Shown here: positions 5,893-13,133 of the stretch, piece after piece
Layout: every line of letters starts with the position of its first letter
How positions within the stretch are numbered: position 1 is the stretch's first letter
Source of the DNA: a virus
DNA: 13,133 bases
Direction: 5' to 3' (one strand)
IMG/VR virus record: IMGVR_UViG_3300045988_162215
The notes under the pieces: model-generated
Told to the model about the DNA's origin: nothing
Databases searched by the model: none
Seen by the model: the letters and a program-made list of their open reading frames with translations, nothing else
Made by a program: the position numbers and the translations under genes

Positions 5893-5921
5893 ATTATATC
5901 AAAAATATTAAAGTTTTTCAA
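5893..5921 (-). promoter_or_regulatory. leftward promoter (-35 TTGAAA, 17-bp spacer, extended -10 TGaTATAAT) for operon 5858->3488
   Basis: Read on the minus strand: TTGAAAaactttaatatttttgaTATAAT. Back-to-back with the rightward promoter. Confidence 0.6.
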
Positions 5922-5947
5922 ATTGGTATTGCTATGGCGGCCGCAAC

Positions 5948-5976
5948 TTGACAAACAAAAATAAGTTTGTTATAAT
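5948..5976 (+). promoter_or_regulatory. rightward consensus promoter TTGACA-17-TATAAT for plus-strand cluster
   Basis: TTGACA 5948-5953, spacer aacaaaaataagtttgt, TATAAT 5971-5976. About 95-nt leader to ATG 6076 with RBS GGAGGGAG. Confidence 0.7.
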
Positions 5977-7320: not shown

Positions 7321-7480
7321 AAAGTGCTAAAATGGCACTTTTTAGATACAAGGAGTCTATTAAAAAGTGCTTAATCGGCACTTTTATATACAAGGAAAAG
7401 TGCTTAATAAGCACTTTTTAATGAGCAGAAAGTGCTTAATTGGCACTTTTTTCTAAGGAAAAGTGCTTAATCGGCACTCT
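7321..7480. repeat. array of five 21-bp palindromic iterons AAAGTGCTTAAT(N)GGCACTTT at 7321, 7364, 7397, 7429, 7460 (spacing 43, 33, 32, 31 bp)
   Basis: Seen directly. Copy 3 (7397-7417) is a perfect palindrome AAAGTGCTTA-A-TAAGCACTTT; the others differ at 1-3 positions. Spacing is about three helical turns. Confidence 0.85.
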
Positions 7481-9047: not shown

Positions 9048-9076
9048 ATTATATAATAATTTTTCAGAAGTGTCAA
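9048..9076 (-). promoter_or_regulatory. consensus promoter TTGACA-17-TATAAT (minus strand)
   Basis: Reverse complement of tgtcaa 9071-9076 and attata 9048-9053, spacer 17. Confidence 0.65.
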
Positions 9077-9205
9077 AGGCACGAAAGCATATACCAGTAG
9101 TAAAATTGTAATTAGCTGTAACTATATCTTTTCTATTGTTGCGGGTATTTGTTCGTTTTTATATGAGAATAAGAAAAAACGAAGCTAATTTACCTCCCCT
9201 ATATA

Positions 9206-9234
9206 ATTATATCAAAAATACGAAAAAATGTCAA
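9206..9234 (-). promoter_or_regulatory. orphan promoter TTGACA-17-TATAAT followed by SD GGGGAGGT with no start codon or ORF downstream
   Basis: Minus strand reads TTGACAttttttcgtatttttgaTATAATtatataGGGGAGGTaaattagcttcg. The nearest in-frame start is a non-canonical ATT giving an 18-aa ORF. Confidence 0.5.
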
Positions 9235-9369
9235 GAAAGATGCGCTGAGGCATTTATCAATAGAATCACTGTAATTCGATACAGTAAGCCATTTTTTATT
9301 CTGACGGATATTTTTACGTTTCAGATAGAAAACGAGCAAATTTACAACAAAAGTAAGTCAAACATCTAA

Positions 9370-9469
9370 TTTCGGGATCCGTATGGCGGTTTTCAGATTT
9401 CAAACAACCAGGAAAAAAAGCCATATAGGGTCTGGTCGTGGGAACTCGGCGTTGCCCGGTGGTCAACGC
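9370..9469 (-). ncRNA. candidate small RNA transcribed leftward from promoter 9476-9504; begins with GC hairpin GGCGTTG/CAACGCC
   Basis: Consensus promoter with no ORF of at least 40 aa and an RBS downstream over 460 nt. The transcript 5' end folds into the 9448-9470 hairpin. The 3' end is undefined. Confidence 0.25.
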
Positions 9470-9475
9470 CGCGAC

Positions 9476-9504
9476 ATTATACCACATTTTATGTGCTTTG
9501 TCAA
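9476..9504 (-). promoter_or_regulatory. consensus promoter TTGACA-17-TATAAT (minus strand) driving an ORF-less transcript
   Basis: tgtcaa 9499-9504 and attata 9476-9481 on the plus strand. Confidence 0.6.
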
Positions 9505-9547
9505 GTAAAAAAATAAAAAAATAGAGGAAAATTCCTCATTTTTTAAG
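9505..9547 (-). terminator. intrinsic terminator: 10-11-bp stem GGAAAATTCCT/AGGAATTTTCC, then UAUUUUUUUAUUUUUUU
   Basis: Inverted repeat 9516-9526 / 9537-9547 downstream of the stop of 9568..9960. Long T-run on the minus strand. Confidence 0.6.
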
Positions 9548-9567
9548 GAATTTTCCCCTAAAAACCT

Positions 9568-9960
9568 TTATTTCTTAGGTTTTCTCTGTTCAATTAAATC
9601 GATTTTGAACTTGCGACCATTGATTTCTAAAGAAATCAGCTTATTTTCCTTAATAATCTCAACCTTTTCGCCATAAATACTTTGCAAATTAGTTAAAATA
9701 TTATGGAAAACTTCTTTTTTTTCATCAGAAATCTTAACTGTCCTAGGCTTTGAATCCTTGCGTTTTTCCTGGGTAATACCATGATCAACTCTCTGTCCTT
9801 TGGTTTTCTCTTCCAACTCGACAACCTCTTCCATTGTAAACCCTTCGGGACACTCTTCCAACTCTTCACAGGGTTTATCCCACATTTCATGGCAAAGCAT
9901 TTTACCATTCTTACAAATAAGATTTCCGCAATCTTCACACAACTTGATATTCATATTCAC
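9568..9960 (-). CDS. protein with N-terminal Cys-rich zinc-ribbon (CEDCGNLICKNGKMLCHEMWDKPC) and charged C-terminal region (130 aa)
   Basis: RBS GAAAGGGG upstream of ATG 9960. Promoter at 9986-10014. Confidence 0.7.
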   Translation of the reverse strand: MNMNIKLCEDCGNLICKNGKMLCHEMWDKPCEELEECPEGFTMEEVVELEEKTKGQRVDHGITQEKRKDSKPRTVKISDEKKEVFHNILTNLQSIYGEKVEIIKENKLISLEINGRKFKIDLIEQRKPKK

Positions 9961-9985
9961 AACCCCTTTCTTTTACTGTACCTAT

Positions 9986-10014
9986 ATTATAACACAAGAG
10001 GTTGAGAATGTCAA
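9986..10014 (-). promoter_or_regulatory. consensus promoter TTGACA-17-TATAAT (minus strand)
   Basis: tgtcaa 10009-10014 and attata 9986-9991, spacer 17. Confidence 0.65.
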
Positions 10015-10024
10015 CCTTTAATTT

Positions 10025-10056
10025 GCGGTTTTCGGTGGGAGAATCCCACCGACCGC
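10025..10056. other. GC-rich hairpin GCGG-tttt-TCGGTGGGA-gaa-TCCCACCGA-CCGC between two minus-strand genes
   Basis: 9-bp perfect stem plus outer GCGG/CCGC. A T-run follows only on the plus strand (CACATTGTTTTT). It carries the 3' flank motif CGC-CACATT shared with the other GC hairpins. Confidence 0.4.
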
Positions 10057-10068
10057 ACATTGTTTTTA

Positions 10069-10467
10069 CTAGCCCGCGATATCCTCAGTATTAAGGGCGA
10101 AGGTCATCTTCTTACCATCTGGAATACGGCGAACCTTGTAAACCATAGATGGAAGTCTGTTTTCTTCCTTTGCTGGACCGGCAAGCTGTGTCATAAGTGC
10201 GACAATCTTGTTAAGCGAATACTCGCCATTAAAGGCATTCATAATCTCTGTACAAGTCATAGGCTTTGAATCCTCGAGCAAGTCAAGAATCATATTCTTG
10301 ATTTCTGCGTTCTCGGTCTGATTCTTAGACGGCTTACGGTTTGCATTCTTCTTGTTAAGAATAGCAATCTCCTTACGGCAAAAGTCCTTGATATCCTCGG
10401 ATACGCCATCAATAGCCATAATCATCTCAAAATACTGCTTCTTTGTTGTCTTGTTTGTTGTTGTCAT
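10069..10467 (-). CDS. Lys/Thr-rich N-term plus C-terminal winged-helix-like domain (132 aa); fed by four tandem promoters
   Basis: RBS AAAAGGGGT upstream of ATG 10467. Segment CTEIMNAF...KIVALMTQL...VYKVRR resembles wHTH. Product unknown. Confidence 0.7.
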   Translation of the reverse strand: MTTTNKTTKKQYFEMIMAIDGVSEDIKDFCRKEIAILNKKNANRKPSKNQTENAEIKNMILDLLEDSKPMTCTEIMNAFNGEYSLNKIVALMTQLAGPAKEENRLPSMVYKVRRIPDGKKMTFALNTEDIAG

Positions 10468-10516
10468 AAAACATACCCCTTTTCTTAATAAATTCTTAAC
10501 TCTTTGTTACATATAC

Positions 10517-10545
10517 ATTATAACATATTTTGTAAGGTTTGTCAA
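10517..10545 (-). promoter_or_regulatory. promoter Pm1 TTGACA-17-TATAAT immediately upstream of gene 10069..10467
   Basis: tgtcaa 10540-10545, attata 10517-10522. Confidence 0.65.
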
Positions 10546-10608
10546 GCATTTTTTTTATTATTTTCTTTTCGGTTTAGAACCTTTAATCTTCCTTGACCTT
10601 ACATACTT

Positions 10609-10637
10609 ATTATAACATATTTTTTAATGTTTGTCAA
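10609..10637 (-). promoter_or_regulatory. promoter Pm2 TTGACA-17-TATAAT (part of 175-bp tandem duplication)
   Basis: tgtcaa 10632-10637, attata 10609-10614. About 50 bp identical to the Pm3 copy. Confidence 0.6.
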
Positions 10638-10783
10638 TAGGTTTTTTAAGATTTTTAAGAAATAACAATGATTTTAGGCGGATATGGAATAAGGCTCAAC
10701 CAAAATTGCCAACTCATTATCCCTTTTATTATTGGTTTTTTATTTCCTTTATCATTGTTTTCTTAACTTTATCTTACATACTT

Positions 10784-10812
10784 ATTATAACATATTTTTT
10801 AATGTTTGTCAA
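10784..10812 (-). promoter_or_regulatory. promoter Pm3, exact duplicate of Pm2
   Basis: cttacatacttattataacatattttttaatgtttgtcaataggttttt occurs at 10598-10646 and again at 10773-10821. Confidence 0.6.
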
Positions 10813-10893
10813 TAGGTTTTTGAAAGTTTCTAAAATTTGTTTTCCTCACGACCGAGGTTGCTATTTTGTTTTCTTTCCTTACCTTGTAAATAC

Positions 10894-10922
10894 ATTATAA
10901 CAAAATATTTATAGAAAATCAA
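10894..10922 (-). promoter_or_regulatory. weaker promoter Pm4 (TTGATT-17-TATAAT)
   Basis: attata 10894-10899. The -35 is rc of aatcaa at 10917-10922. Confidence 0.35.
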
Positions 10923-10927
10923 TATCG

Positions 10928-10980
10928 GAAAATTGCACAAAATTCGGGATGTACAAGGTTAAAAAATTTGTGCAATTTTC
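10928..10980. repeat. inverted repeat GAAAATTGCACAAA ...25 nt... TTTGTGCAATTTTC
   Basis: 14-bp perfect arms at 10928-10941 and 10967-10980. Abuts the -35 of the plus-strand promoter at 10984. Confidence 0.7.
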
Positions 10981-10983
10981 CTA

Positions 10984-11013
10984 TTGACAAATGCCAGAGC
11001 TATGTGGTATAAT
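10984..11013 (+). promoter_or_regulatory. plus-strand promoter TTGACA-18-TATAAT firing rightward into GC hairpin 11019-11041
   Basis: TTGACA 10984-10989, TATAAT 11008-11013. Confidence 0.55.
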
Positions 11014-11046
11014 AGTTCGGCGTGCAAGGGGCGTGCACGCCGCGCC

Positions 11047-11075
11047 ATTATAACACATAATGAATTATTTGTCAA
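11047..11075 (-). promoter_or_regulatory. minus-strand promoter TTGACA-17-TATAAT; its transcript begins with hairpin 11019-11041 and runs through IR 10928-10980
   Basis: tgtcaa 11070-11075, attata 11047-11052. Confidence 0.55.
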
Positions 11076-11092
11076 CCCCTAAATTAAAAAAA

Positions 11093-11119
11093 TGTGGGCG
11101 AGTTTAGGCTCGCCGCACA
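11093..11119. terminator. bidirectional intrinsic terminator (TGTGGGCGAG/CTCGCCGCACA) flanked by AAAAAAA upstream and TTTTCGATTTCC downstream
   Basis: A-run 11085-11092 gives a U-run for the minus-strand gene 11133..11360. The T-rich 11120-11131 serves the plus-strand sRNA candidate. Confidence 0.65.
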
Positions 11120-11132
11120 TTTTCGATTTCCA

Positions 11133-11360
11133 CTAATCTTCAATGATTAACTTCGCTTTAAGTTTACGAATAGGTCTTTCTGAAAAATCACAAATAACTC
11201 CTTCTATAGCTCCGCTGTCAAGGTCAACAATATATGTATCATAATTATCAGCACATAACATACAAGGTTTATTATCATCTAAAAATGTAAAAACTTCACC
11301 ATTATCTAAATCTTCGCAACTTAAATATCCCTTAACTTCAATCTTTCCAATAATTTCCAT
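11133..11360 (-). CDS. hypothetical acidic Cys-containing protein (75 aa)
   Basis: RBS AAAGGTGA 5 nt before ATG 11360..11358 (the track start was an upstream GTG). Promoter at 11404-11432. Confidence 0.6.
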   Translation of the reverse strand: MEIIGKIEVKGYLSCEDLDNGEVFTFLDDNKPCMLCADNYDTYIVDLDSGAIEGVICDFSERPIRKLKAKLIIED

Positions 11361-11403
11361 TTTAATCACCTTTTTAACCTTTCTTTCTCTTGTTTATATA
11401 CTT

Positions 11404-11432
11404 ATTATACTATATTTATTATTATTTGTCAA
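11404..11432 (-). promoter_or_regulatory. consensus promoter TTGACA-17-TATAAT
   Basis: tgtcaa 11427-11432, attata 11404-11409. Confidence 0.65.
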
Positions 11433-11446
11433 GTATTTTTAGAAAA

Positions 11447-11466
11447 ATAGGCATTTCTGCCTATTC
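11447..11466 (-). terminator. terminator hairpin AATAGGCA-tttc-TGCCTATT, then UUUUCU on minus strand
   Basis: Overlaps the stop of 11461..11751. Directly upstream of the next promoter. Confidence 0.5.
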
Positions 11467-11751
11467 TTCAGAGATATTTGCGAAGGGCATCTTCGGACAA
11501 GGATAATCGTCAACCACTGATGAGCCACCATAAGTGGTTCGTACCATTGACACTCTCCACGCCACATCCGCAAGTCTATCAATACAACTTGGATAACTAC
11601 TCGTACACCAAATTTCTCCATTCTTACGAAAAATATCCTGATATGTGCCTTTAATTGTAGTTAAAAGACTAATCACATCTTCGATTTTCTGTTCCTCTTC
11701 TGGTGTCAAAGTAATTGTTTCAATACGTTTCTCGCCTGTAATAATTTCCAT
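11461..11751 (-). CDS. hypothetical protein (96 aa)
   Basis: RBS AGAGAGGT 7 nt before ATG 11751. Promoter at 11783-11811. Confidence 0.65.
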   Translation of the reverse strand: MEIITGEKRIETITLTPEEEQKIEDVISLLTTIKGTYQDIFRKNGEIWCTSSYPSCIDRLADVAWRVSMVRTTYGGSSVVDDYPCPKMPFANISEE

Positions 11752-11782
11752 ATAATTTACCTCTCTTTCACTTTCTATAATT

Positions 11783-11811
11783 ATTATATCATTATTATTT
11801 TAATTTGTCAA
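11783..11811 (-). promoter_or_regulatory. consensus promoter TTGACA-17-TATAAT (lies inside the 3' end of gene 11795..11998)
   Basis: tgtcaa 11806-11811, attata 11783-11788. Confidence 0.6.
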
Positions 11812-11998
11812 CATTTAATTCATAAATATTGTAATAAATTTTTGTTATCCAAGTATTTCTTATTATTCGCCAACATTTCCAAATAGGTCTTTGCCAACTT
11901 TTAAGATTAAAGCCTAAAATAAACAATGCCTTAAAATTTTTCCATGATTTTTCTTTAAGCCAATTATCTATTACTAAATACTGTGTTTTTGTTATCAT
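11795..11998 (-). CDS. Trp-rich basic small protein (67 aa)
   Basis: RBS AGAGAGGT 7 nt before ATG 11998. Promoter at 12024-12052. The 3' end overlaps the downstream promoter. Confidence 0.5.
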   Translation of the reverse strand: MITKTQYLVIDNWLKEKSWKNFKALFILGFNLKSWQRPIWKCWRIIRNTWITKIYYNIYELNVDKLK

Positions 11999-12023
11999 TC
12001 TTATTACCTCTCTTTCTACAATT

Positions 12024-12052
12024 ATTATATCACAGCTGGCTTACTTTGTCAA
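12024..12052 (-). promoter_or_regulatory. consensus promoter TTGACA-17-TATAAT
   Basis: tgtcaa 12047-12052, attata 12024-12029. Confidence 0.6.
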
Positions 12053-12205
12053 GCACTTTTTTATTGCGTATTCAACTGGCGAAACTGGATAAACACAAAC
12101 AACTAATTCTTGAAGCAATTGTGACGCTTGTTTTTTATTTCTAATAGCCTTTTTACTTTTTATATATTGAAAACCATTAGCAGTTTTTATTTTATAATAT
12201 TTCAT
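12041..12205 (-). CDS. small basic protein (54 aa, MKYYKIKTANGFQYIKSKKAIRNKKQ...), not in ORF track
   Basis: RBS AGTGAGGT 9 nt before ATG 12205..12203. Its own TTGACA-17-TATAAT promoter is at 12233-12261. The stop overlaps the downstream -35. Confidence 0.45.
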   Translation of the reverse strand: MKYYKIKTANGFQYIKSKKAIRNKKQASQLLQELVVCVYPVSPVEYAIKKCLTK

Positions 12206-12232
12206 TTCTTATCAACCTCACTTTCTATACCT

Positions 12233-12261
12233 ATTATACCACCGCTGACCTACTCTGTCAA
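12233..12261 (-). promoter_or_regulatory. consensus promoter TTGACA-17-TATAAT
   Basis: tgtcaa 12256-12261, attata 12233-12238. Confidence 0.6.
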
Positions 12262-12708
12262 AAGTAAATCAGCTAAAAAATCAATAATATTTTCTGCGGT
12301 CGGATCGACTGTTTCTCCCAAACTCCAACCCTTGCGAACCTTTGCGTTATCATCAAAAAGAATCTGATTTCCGCCATGCTTGCGTGTGCAGTTTGCTTTT
12401 GTTGTGCCATACTTCACAAGATGGATTTCATCAAAAGGGAAATCATATCGAGCAAGCCAATCTCTTTTTGCAGTTCTCACAACCTCGTCGAAGTCTTTTG
12501 TGGAATCTTTAGACAACCAAGATGTGACAACGATTCTATAACCGACACTCTTCAAACAACAGAGAAGAGAACCAAGCAAAGCCATATCCCAAAGTGGCTC
12601 AGCCATAATGTAAGGGCGCGGGTTCTCGTTGTGTAAATCCTCAAGCCAGCCCTCTACTCCATAGAAATTTGCGATTGTTCCATCCATGTCAAATACTAAT
12701 GTTTTCAT
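12250..12708 (-). CDS. HAD-superfamily 5'(3')-deoxyribonucleotidase (NT5C-like), 152 aa
   Basis: N-terminal motif I FDMDGT (DxDGT), motif II VVTSW, motif IV ILFDDN. Size and layout typical of phage NT5C-type nucleotidases. RBS AAGAGGT 7 nt before ATG 12708. Confidence 0.8.
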   Translation of the reverse strand: MKTLVFDMDGTIANFYGVEGWLEDLHNENPRPYIMAEPLWDMALLGSLLCCLKSVGYRIVVTSWLSKDSTKDFDEVVRTAKRDWLARYDFPFDEIHLVKYGTTKANCTRKHGGNQILFDDNAKVRKGWSLGETVDPTAENIIDFLADLLLTE

Positions 12709-12738
12709 ATTTTTTACCTCTTTCCTTATCTTTTCTTT

Positions 12739-12767
12739 ATTATAGCATGTTATTTGTTATTTGTCAA
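12739..12767 (-). promoter_or_regulatory. consensus promoter TTGACA-17-TATAAT
   Basis: tgtcaa 12762-12767, attata 12739-12744. Confidence 0.6.
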
Positions 12768-12774
12768 CTACTTT

Positions 12775-12909
12775 TTACCAGATAGTAATAGATTGTTTAG
12801 AATCATCATACTCCACAGCAGGCTCGCAAAAGTTGCCTTCGCTTTCTATATAGACTTCTGTATCTGATGGATATTCTTGTAATATTTCAATTAAATCTTC
12901 AACTGTCAT
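12775..12909 (-). CDS. small acidic protein (44 aa, MTVEDLIEILQEYPSDTEVYIESEGNFCEPAVEYDDSKQSITIW), not in ORF track
   Basis: RBS AGAGAGGT 7 nt before ATG 12909..12907. Promoter at 12945-12973. Confidence 0.45.
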   Translation of the reverse strand: MTVEDLIEILQEYPSDTEVYIESEGNFCEPAVEYDDSKQSITIW

Positions 12910-12944
12910 ATTTTTTACCTCTCTTTCCTTTACCTTATATACAC

Positions 12945-12973
12945 ATTATACATGATAGATTTTAATTTGTCAA
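12945..12973 (-). promoter_or_regulatory. consensus promoter TTGACA-17-TATAAT
   Basis: tgtcaa 12968-12973, attata 12945-12950. Confidence 0.6.
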
Positions 12974-13017
12974 GCATTTTGGGATAAAAAAATAAAAAAA
13001 TTTTTTCAAAAAAACTC

Positions 13018-13046
13018 TTGACAAAAAGCCGGGACTATGATATACT
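13018..13046 (+). promoter_or_regulatory. plus-strand promoter TTGACA-17-TATACT firing into GC hairpin 13054-13080
   Basis: Homologous in position and sequence to the 10984-11013 promoter (shared ...TATAmTrGAAGTTCGGCG). Confidence 0.5.
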
Positions 13047-13053
13047 GGAAGTT

Positions 13054-13080
13054 CGGCGCGCTGCGATCCATGGCGCGCCG
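13054..13080. repeat. GC hairpin CGGCGCGC-tgcgatccatg-GCGCGCCG (homolog of hairpin 11019-11041 with a different stem sequence)
   Basis: 8-bp perfect stem. Flanked by TTCGGCG on the 5' side and CGCCAATTATAACAC on the 3' side, as at 11019-11041. Confidence 0.75.
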
Positions 13081-13083
13081 CCA

Positions 13084-13112
13084 ATTATAACACAAAAATC
13101 AATTTTTGTCAA
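13084..13112 (-). promoter_or_regulatory. minus-strand promoter TTGACA-17-TATAAT convergent with 13018-13046
   Basis: tgtcaa 13107-13112, attata 13084-13089. Its transcript starts in the GC hairpin. Confidence 0.55.
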
Positions 13113-13133
13113 GCACTTTTTTCAAAAAAAAAT

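Follow-up and report, generated by a model that had tools for sequence, protein, structure and literature searches.

The leaders of ermC and aprE are 5'-terminal stem-loop stabilisers of messenger RNA (mRNA) in Firmicutes, located on coding mRNAs directly ahead of the ribosome-binding site, and a base-paired 5' end resists 5'-end-dependent decay in these bacteria. The promoters pIN/pOUT of IS10 and pR/pL of phage 186 form face-to-face pairs, and the REP/BIME elements of enterobacteria are imperfect palindromes rich in guanine and cytosine (GC) which occur between genes, at gene 3' ends and in many copies. The promoter-early stem-loops (PeSLs) of the T4-type phages RB49/phi1, PST and nt-1 are composite cassettes of a promoter and a stem-loop that border ORFans and through which modules are shuffled (PMC2839356, PMC4122927). 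Described here is a family of GC-rich hairpins represented three times (units U1, U2 and U3) in a 13,133-nt stretch of viral DNA, IMG/VR record IMGVR_UViG_3300045988_162215 (the whole of this stretch is referred to as the window). Each hairpin belongs to a module which, on the gene strand, consists of an optional sense sigma-A promoter (T1), the GC hairpin, an optional antisense sigma-A promoter (B), the motif TCCC(G/A)AA approximately 70 nt beyond the hairpin 3' foot and the promoter of the next gene. Large contigs of related phages contain over 100 copies of the unit made up of the hairpin, the spacer of about 70 nt and TCCCRAA, several to a genome.

The hairpin module in the window and in related phages

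The window has a GC content of 32.6% and looks like a phage early region. In the block under study (9448-13090), short open reading frames (ORFs) occupy the minus strand at approximately 9.4-13.1 kb, each with a perfect TTGACA-N17-TATAAT promoter upstream, often with a TG extension; fifteen such promoters were identified on this strand. A previous analysis of the DNA (the sequence-only reading) had listed five hairpins in the block, all of which are present where it placed them. They were described as the only strongly GC segments, sitting at +1 of promoters, four of them sharing a 3' flank (CGCCG-CnCATT-ATAACAC) that doubles as the -10 of a minus-strand promoter. This holds for U1, U2 and U3, which reach at least 75% GC in 20-nt windows scanned over 9448-13090 (9440-9475, 11017-11049 and 13054-13083), lie 3-4 nt past the -10 of minus-strand promoters with 12/12 hexamer positions and carry the flank. 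It does not extend to the hairpins at 10025-10056 and 11093-11119, which are less GC-rich and are not found at a promoter +1; the latter, counted as the fourth bearer of the flank, shares only CGCCGCACATT, followed by TTCGAT. The pattern TATAAT-N3-4-CGGCG-N9-25-CGCCG matches four times in the window, compared to a mean of 0.00 (never any) in 200 dinucleotide shuffles.

Two features of the units had been overlooked. U2 and U3 possess plus-strand promoters, placing their hairpins between two promoters which face each other, and TCCCGAA or TCCCAAA occurs on the minus strand 68-69 nt past the 3' foot of each hairpin (9377, 10949 and 12984). No antisense promoter is present in U1. The hairpin at 11119-11093 has the GC stem, short loop and U tract within 0-2 nt of an intrinsic terminator, and that at 10025-10056 lacks a T tail on the gene strand as well as TCCCRAA at +70. 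A search of 9300-13133 against Rfam (E up to 1) gave no match, and ARAGORN predicted no transfer RNA (tRNA) in the region. The coordinates of these features are given in Table 1.

Recurrence of the module was examined with two sets of stretches. For the first, IMG/VR was searched for the promoter and CGGCG...CGCCG, TCCCRAA not being part of the query. This returned 25 stretches, mostly of phage contigs 80-197 kb long, and TCCC(G/A)AA lies at the same distance in all but one, which reads TCCTGAA. A scan of the fetched loci (denoted by L numbers) gave 66 distinct units, with T1 alone abutting the hairpin in twenty-four, B alone in eighteen, both in thirteen and neither in eleven. All units of a locus have the orientation of its genes; L026 carries at least five units in 8 kb and L029 carries six. 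For the second set, the pattern comprised only the B promoter and TCCCRAAAT, with no hairpin term and a gap of 25-40 nt allowed between the -35 and TCCC. From the 85 stretches retrieved, 95 distinct units were obtained, and a GC hairpin was present in 92, in 89 of which it lies 3-8 nt from CCATTATACCA. A sense promoter is also found at 15 of the 76 distinct hairpins of these B-selected units. The B promoter is strongly conserved (CCATTATACCAYA-N13-TTTTTGTCAAG on the gene strand, that is TTGACAAAAA...TGGTATAATGG on the other strand), and family-wide it is the promoter antisense to the genes that more commonly abuts the hairpin.

The proposal that the stems differ in sequence and are selected for structure is borne out among orthologous hairpins. 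Eight stem pairs vary: four are changed on both sides (as in the fifth pair of U2, which is T-A in the window and A-T in L013), three change from G:C to G:T (G:U in RNA) and one innermost pair is broken. Variable columns make up 8% of stems versus 24% of loops. Loops across the family are 7-13 nt long and modestly pyrimidine-rich on the sense strand (219 versus 151 bases; counted by loops, 26 versus 14, p = 0.08).

Table 1. Coordinates of the module components and of the two non-member hairpins in the window
Feature	Position	Strand	Details
U1 sense promoter (T1)	9476..9504	minus	TTGACA-N17-TGgTATAAT, 12/12; 4 nt from end of -10 to hairpin
U1 GC hairpin	9447..9471		CGGCGTTG / CAACGCCG; stem 8 bp, loop 9 nt; identical in L005 and L013
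U1 motif TCCCGAAAT	9369..9377	minus	69 nt from 3' foot of hairpin
U2 sense promoter (T1)	11047..11075	minus	12/12, with TG
U2 GC hairpin	11018..11042		CGGCGTGCA / TGCACGCCG
U2 antisense promoter (B)	10984..11013	plus	TTGACA-N18-TGgTATAAT, 12/12; fires into hairpin, facing T1; aligns with family consensus
U2 TCCCGAA motif	10943..10949	minus	68 nt from hairpin foot
U2 downstream sense promoter (P_top2)	10894..10922	minus	TTGATT-N17-TGtTATAAT, 10/12
Predicted U2 antisense RNA (~105 nt)	11020..11128	plus	GC hairpin at 5' end, T1 complement, bidirectional terminator 11093-11119, AUUUUCGAUUU tail
U3 sense promoter (T1)	13084..13112	minus	12/12, with TG; 3 nt from end of -10 to hairpin
U3 GC hairpin	13054..13080		CGGCGCGC / GCGCGCCG; stem 8 bp, loop 11 nt; among relatives loop varies, stem constant
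U3 antisense promoter (B)	13018..13046	plus	TTGACA-N17-TATACT, 11/12; -10 ends 7 nt before hairpin
U3 motif TCCCAAAAT	12976..12984	minus	69 nt from hairpin foot; 2 nt before -35 of gene promoter 12973-12945
Intrinsic terminator (non-member)	11093-11119	minus	T-tailed, of gene 11133-11369; weaker T-rich tail on plus strand
Gene-end hairpin (non-member)	10025-10056	minus	directly past stop of gene 10069-10467; 10 nt before promoter 10014-9986

Megablast of the window against INPHARED identified no near-identical phage, and blastn of a family unit against the same database gave no match. The sole link to INPHARED that was found is a HAD-like protein (12250-12708), which connects the window at the protein level to phAss-1, a 136-kb TAG-recoding siphovirus of the human gut whose predicted host is a member of the Clostridia (PMC10607447). 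Proteins adjoining the units (the HAD-like protein, those encoded at 10069-10467 and 9568-9960 and two small helix-turn-helix-like proteins) recur in many contigs, and most contigs therefore appear to be one phage lineage. The phage belongs to a lineage of large uncultured gut phages related to phAss-1, for which a Clostridia host is predicted because of the consensus TTGACA/TGnTATAAT promoters together with the host prediction for phAss-1 (PMC10607447). A census of the phAss-1 genome gave one unit (129,113-129,018), and the module is therefore rare in that genome. The phAss-1 paper makes no mention of promoters, hairpins or an RNA polymerase (PMC10607447). No description of the module was found, there being no Rfam match, no similar deposited-phage record and nothing in the phAss-1 paper; the conserved antisense promoter starting at the hairpin and the TCCCRAA motif at a fixed 70 nt are features not described before.

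A search for hosts in bacterial genome contigs found true units only on mis-binned phage contigs. Two metagenome-assembled genomes (MAGs), L040 of the Acutalibacteraceae and L043 of the Clostridia, show a consensus promoter with a GC hairpin at +1 and then directly a tRNA gene, which suggests that bacteria of the likely host group arrange promoter and hairpin in the same way at genes for stable RNAs. Genes for tRNA were also observed on the gene strand directly upstream of some phage units (L005, about 1-200; L028, about 11600-11740), and in the close relative L005 one lies ahead of the U3 homologue, just past the right end of the window. Directly upstream of the single unit of phAss-1 (OQ749652.1, about 129,270-129,370 on the minus strand; L036, about 29,270-29,370) lies a sequence that resembles the 3' end of a tRNA (GGTTCGACTCCCGTACACTCCACCA) and has its match in a 5' GGGGTGT; it is located within a 1.1-kb stretch with no annotated gene and received no ARAGORN call.

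The 70-nt spacing and the contents of the spacer

TCCC lies 69.6 +/- 1.0 nt from the hairpin 3' foot in the 66 units, and the distance is looser when measured from the hairpin centre (standard deviation 1.8) or the 5' foot (standard deviation 3.5). TCCCRAA is found at 68-72 nt for 59 of the 205 GC hairpins in the loci and at almost no other distance. The length of the spacer is kept and its contents differ between units. Spacers of type B (including U2 and U3) contain the antisense promoter and an A+T-rich upstream region, those of the L004 type contain TTGTCAATAGG and a TTGCACAAA/TTTGTGCAA inverted repeat, that of L010 contains Gram-positive LexA boxes and those of L026 and L022 contain three perfect DnaA boxes. 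The U1 spacer has CATATG-T6-7 and GTTTGAAATCT blocks that also occur in a unit belonging to a distant phage (L012, L020). In U2, TCCCGAA sits in the loop of the inverted repeat formed by TTGCACAAA (about 10968-10976) and TTTGTGCAA (10933-10941). TCCCGAAAT continues into TTTGTGCAAT in many units, the promoter of the next gene then following at a variable distance.

These distances bring to the fore an explanation in which the hairpin and TCCCRAA together form a bipartite, strand-specific cis-element for a structure-specific factor that measures about 70 nt, the promoters being secondary add-ons. A recombinase acting at cassette boundaries, priming or an origin, and an RNA-processing enzyme are the candidate roles. 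In favour of such an element are the tightness of the ruler at the 3' foot, its persistence across antisense-promoter, LexA-box, DnaA-box, TTGCACAAA-repeat and U1-type spacers, and the mild negative correlation (-0.36) between the component gaps of B-type units; as stem sequence varies, recognition would be by structure. However, in B-selected units the motif is held more tightly to the antisense -35 (33.2 +/- 0.5), and a site in the upstream part of that antisense promoter would explain most cases. RNAalifold found no conserved RNA fold in the spacer of B-type or U1-type units, where conservation is blockwise in the DNA sequence; Pfam, PHROGs and PDB sequence searches of conserved neighbour proteins gave nothing useful as a candidate binding protein; and mosaic breakpoints fall in promoters and leaders, not at TCCC or the hairpin. 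The bipartite element is consequently viewed as an unlikely explanation, with a small but real chance of being correct. If true, the fixed 70-nt coupling would reflect a dedicated factor and hence a new mechanism, and the element would be of a kind without a described counterpart in phages, organising the boundaries of early cassettes.

Several identities for the spacer and its motif were considered and rejected. TCCCGAAAT was compared to the consensuses of Spo0A (TGNCGAA), CodY, PurBox, LexA, sigma-D and rrn boxA sites, and each fails at invariant positions. The spacer is not a tRNA remnant, no tRNA-like sequence and no ARAGORN call having been obtained. Phasing of A-tracts in the spacer gave a power peak near 12 nt rather than 10.5 and was uninformative.

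In the unit at L010:4136-4259 there are Gram-positive LexA (Cheo) boxes such as CGAACAGTTGTTCG, and this sequence suggests that the unit may be an SOS-controlled variant of the module. The unit at about 5040-5150 of L026 and the homologous unit of L022 have the DnaA boxes TTATCCACA and TGTGGATAA (the latter twice), flanking TCCCGAAA; they occupy the positions of the TTGCACAAA/TTTGTGCAA boxes of other units. The L026 unit is located just past what corresponds to the right end of the window in this close relative.

Predicted transcription of the module and cassette boundaries

Provided that transcription starts 7 nt past the -10, the hairpin would begin about 0-4 nt from the RNA 5' terminus. The antisense -10 lies approximately 7-8 nt from the hairpin foot (g1 of 5.6 +/- 1.1, plus 2), and +1 is therefore predicted on the first hairpin base; in U3 the distance is 7 nt and +1 would therefore fall at the hairpin foot. 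For the sense promoter, the gap between -10 and foot is about 0-4 nt. On these predicted starts, the placement of the hairpin exactly at +1 is best matched by the antisense promoter, which the sequence-only reading had not seen. The 5'-terminal hairpins of the RNAs have predicted energies of -10.5 to -17.2 kcal/mol. The expectation that the RNAs begin with a stem-loop thus agrees with the base-paired 5' ends predicted at three of the hairpins, for sense RNAs too, and fails for the other two, which are gene-end hairpins. Hairpin promoters of the N4 type were considered and rejected, as those have stems of 5-7 bp and loops of 3 nt, and the phAss-1 paper names no RNA polymerase (PMC10607447).

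Taken strictly, the earlier proposal is that the hairpins serve solely to give sense early mRNAs a 5' stem-loop that blocks entry of RNase J/RNase E and lengthens their life. The abutting sense promoters of all three window units, the predicted base-paired 5' ends and the conservation of the stems as structure are all consistent with this. On the other hand, the sense promoters of U1, U2 and U3, unlike the other twelve perfect promoters, are not followed by a ribosome-binding site and ORF, and the genes that come next are served by promoters of their own, 130-400 nt further downstream. Most units of the family lack a sense promoter (it is present at 15/76 B-selected hairpins), the sense +1 falls inside the stem, and the antisense promoter and the TCCCRAA motif are left unexplained. 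A role confined to mRNA stabilisation is for these reasons considered improbable.

The face-to-face promoters of U2 and U3, whose transcripts overlap only across the hairpin, could also generate a regulatory pair of sense and antisense RNAs, as in IS10 RNA-IN/RNA-OUT or lambda oop, in which the loops kiss, a duplex forms and decay follows; in antisense-only units the target would be the 3' end of the upstream mRNA. The long loops are suited to this, and for U2 the prediction is a discrete, terminated antisense RNA about 105 nt long (minimum free energy -38.4 kcal/mol, z -3.99). A different terminator is found in L005 at the place of the U2 terminator 11093-11119. A terminator-like site occurs 60-120 nt downstream for 24/169 antisense promoters. 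Against such pairing, there is no ribosome-binding site or start codon in the overlap, both promoters are present in only 13/66 units, and most of the antisense RNAs lack a defined 3' end; in the family as a whole, a terminator-like site follows only about a fifth of the antisense promoters. An RNA pair is accordingly a very improbable account of the module.

A further possibility is that the hairpins are terminators or attenuators of read-through from the upstream cassette, PeSL-like, and that the promoters overlap them merely because intergenic space is tight. The hairpin is always at the 3' side of the preceding cassette, and a T-rich 3' flank (at least 5 T in 9 nt) was found on the gene strand in 13/41 representative units versus 4/41 on the other strand. 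Several units without an abutting promoter look like true terminators, and experiments have demonstrated transcription termination by the stem-loops of PeSLs (PMC2839356). The terminator scan, however, did not call U1, U2 or U3. Loops in these hairpins measure 7-11 nt, the tails (AGTTCCC, AACTATT and AACTTCC) have no U tract, and each hairpin is preceded 30-60 nt upstream by a canonical terminator of its own. Judged on tails and upstream terminators, these three are not canonical terminators. Loops of 7-13 nt are also long for terminators, and the precise spacing to promoters on both sides would have to be a coincidence. As a general explanation termination is judged unlikely.

The reading that is tentatively preferred, and that is held to be possible rather than probable, is that U1, U2 and U3 are copies of a conserved, PeSL-like intergenic boundary module whose RNAs begin with a stem-loop. 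Its basis is what can be observed directly, namely the anatomy, recurrence and spacings of the module, the conservation of its structure and the mosaic boundaries described below. The hairpin would be transcribed first from an abutting consensus promoter, yielding an RNA with a GC stem-loop and no single-stranded 5' end. In U2 and U3 the facing start sites are only about 25-35 bp apart, and therefore RNA polymerase would probably not occupy both promoters at once; the sense and antisense RNAs would be complementary only across the hairpin. The module would in this way act as a transcriptional boundary between gene cassettes, setting how much transcription passes into the next cassette: antisense initiation and the GC block would work against transcription reading through from the cassette upstream, and the next cassette could be entered by a sense transcript that has a long leader and a protected 5' end. 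The repeated promoter sequences may double as junctions for cassette exchange, as in T4-type PeSLs.

Several observations weigh against such a boundary. The sense +1 in U1, U2 and U3 falls about 3 nt inside the stem, the RNA keeping 6-7 of 8-9 pairs, and the genes have a closer promoter of their own (P_top2 in the case of U2), so that the distal transcript has no obvious need of a hairpin at its 5' end. An abutting promoter is absent from 11/66 units, and approximately a third of the family hairpins, those with a T-rich 3' flank on the gene strand, may simply be terminators. The bias towards wobble pairs on the sense strand is weak (3-4 versus 0 among orthologues; 8 versus 3 in an unbiased set, p = 0.23). 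The ruler of 69.6 +/- 1.0 nt between hairpin and TCCCRAA, kept even across quite different spacer architectures, is left unexplained.

Comparison of the window with L026 and L027, which are 92-97% identical to it over long blocks, showed that the sequences cease to match at 11055, which falls in the spacer of the U2 T1 promoter immediately before its -10, and match again from 12206, a leader/ATG junction. Between these positions the window has four small ORFs and L026/L027 have other sequence. Three relatives carry three different genes after U3. The analogy that had been drawn to PeSL-like units as recombination hotspots therefore stands, homology breaking inside the promoter that adjoins U2 and at the leader/ATG junction.

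Some intergenic regions near the units were also noted. Within 10500-10950 there are four sense promoters in a row (10545, 10637, 10812 and 10922) with no ORF of more than 40 amino acids between them, and 10589-10649 and 10773-10814 are copies of each other; this is how cassettes emptied by promoter-to-promoter recombination would look. At 9048-9450, about 400 nt downstream of U1, two further perfect promoters (9234-9206 and 9076-9048) were identified, and no convincing ORF is present ahead of the gene at 9008-8640. Downstream of the promoter at 9234 come GGGGAGG and a hairpin (TTCGTTTTT/AAAAACGAA), and no start codon is properly spaced; this region could be a non-coding RNA.

Elsewhere in the window, back-to-back strong promoters (minus strand 5921-5893, plus strand 5948-5976) head two divergent operons, in the left and middle parts of the window, and the sign of the GC skew switches at 5893-5976. 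A tandem array of 3.6 copies of the 32-nt unit AAAAGTGCTTAATCGGCACTTTTTATATAAGG, with one small hairpin per copy, lies between plus-strand genes at 7363-7478; it is kept in L026 and L027 and has an iteron-like look, Rfam matches being weak and below threshold.

The phage group concerned is abundant in the human and animal gut, recodes TAG and has no cultured host, and its early-gene control is undescribed. The module provides a handle for the annotation of early regions and cassette boundaries in this lineage. As natural consensus promoters placed face to face with a built-in 5' stem-loop, units such as U2 and U3 may be of use in work on promoter interference and RNA stability in Clostridia.

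Comparison with known systems

In common with the ermC and aprE leaders, the module has a stable hairpin at, or a few nt from, the predicted 5' end of a sigma-A transcript. The RNAs concerned are different, being a predicted antisense RNA and a sense RNA with a long leader rather than a coding mRNA in which the hairpin is close to the ribosome-binding site. Like IS10 and phage 186, U2 and U3 have convergent promoters with starts a few tens of bp apart, transcripts that overlap at their 5' ends and an antisense RNA with a stem-loop. In control of the IS10 type the region shared by the two RNAs includes the site where translation of the target begins, whereas no ribosome-binding site or start codon was found in or near the hairpin of the module. 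The overlap here is also palindromic, and the arrangement is not a single switch but occurs at least five times in a genome. With REP/BIME the module shares GC-rich imperfect palindromes at gene 3' ends, conservation of structure over sequence and a large number of intergenic copies. It differs in having no conserved stem-adjacent tetranucleotide and no RAYT transposase, and in its tie to promoters and TCCCRAA.

The PeSLs differ from the module in some respects. The lineage described here is related to a Firmicute-type siphovirus and not to T4-like myoviruses, and there is no sequence homology, so that the resemblance is one of analogy only. In RB49/phi1 the stem-loop is placed in the interval from -35 to -10 or overlaps with the latter (PMC2839356), whereas the module hairpin is downstream of the -10. 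The antisense promoter and TCCCRAA at approximately 70 nt have not been described for PeSLs. Terminator activity and mini-circle formation have been shown for PeSLs. The likeness is nevertheless extensive. Both are multi-copy composites, conserved over roughly 100 bp, of a near-perfect TTGACA-N17-TATAAT promoter and a GC-rich stem-loop. U1, U2 and U3 have near-consensus promoters on one or both sides (12/12 or 11/12 hexamer positions, spacers of 17-18 nt), next to a stable stem-loop that is variable in sequence. The elements occur in many copies between small ORFan cassettes, in an early region that is hyperplastic (at least five in 8 kb of L026), and differences between near-identical phages map to the elements, here at 11055, at 12206 and after U3. 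The module would thus represent a second, independent example of promoter/stem-loop cassettes that mark gene shuffling in the hyperplastic regions of phages.

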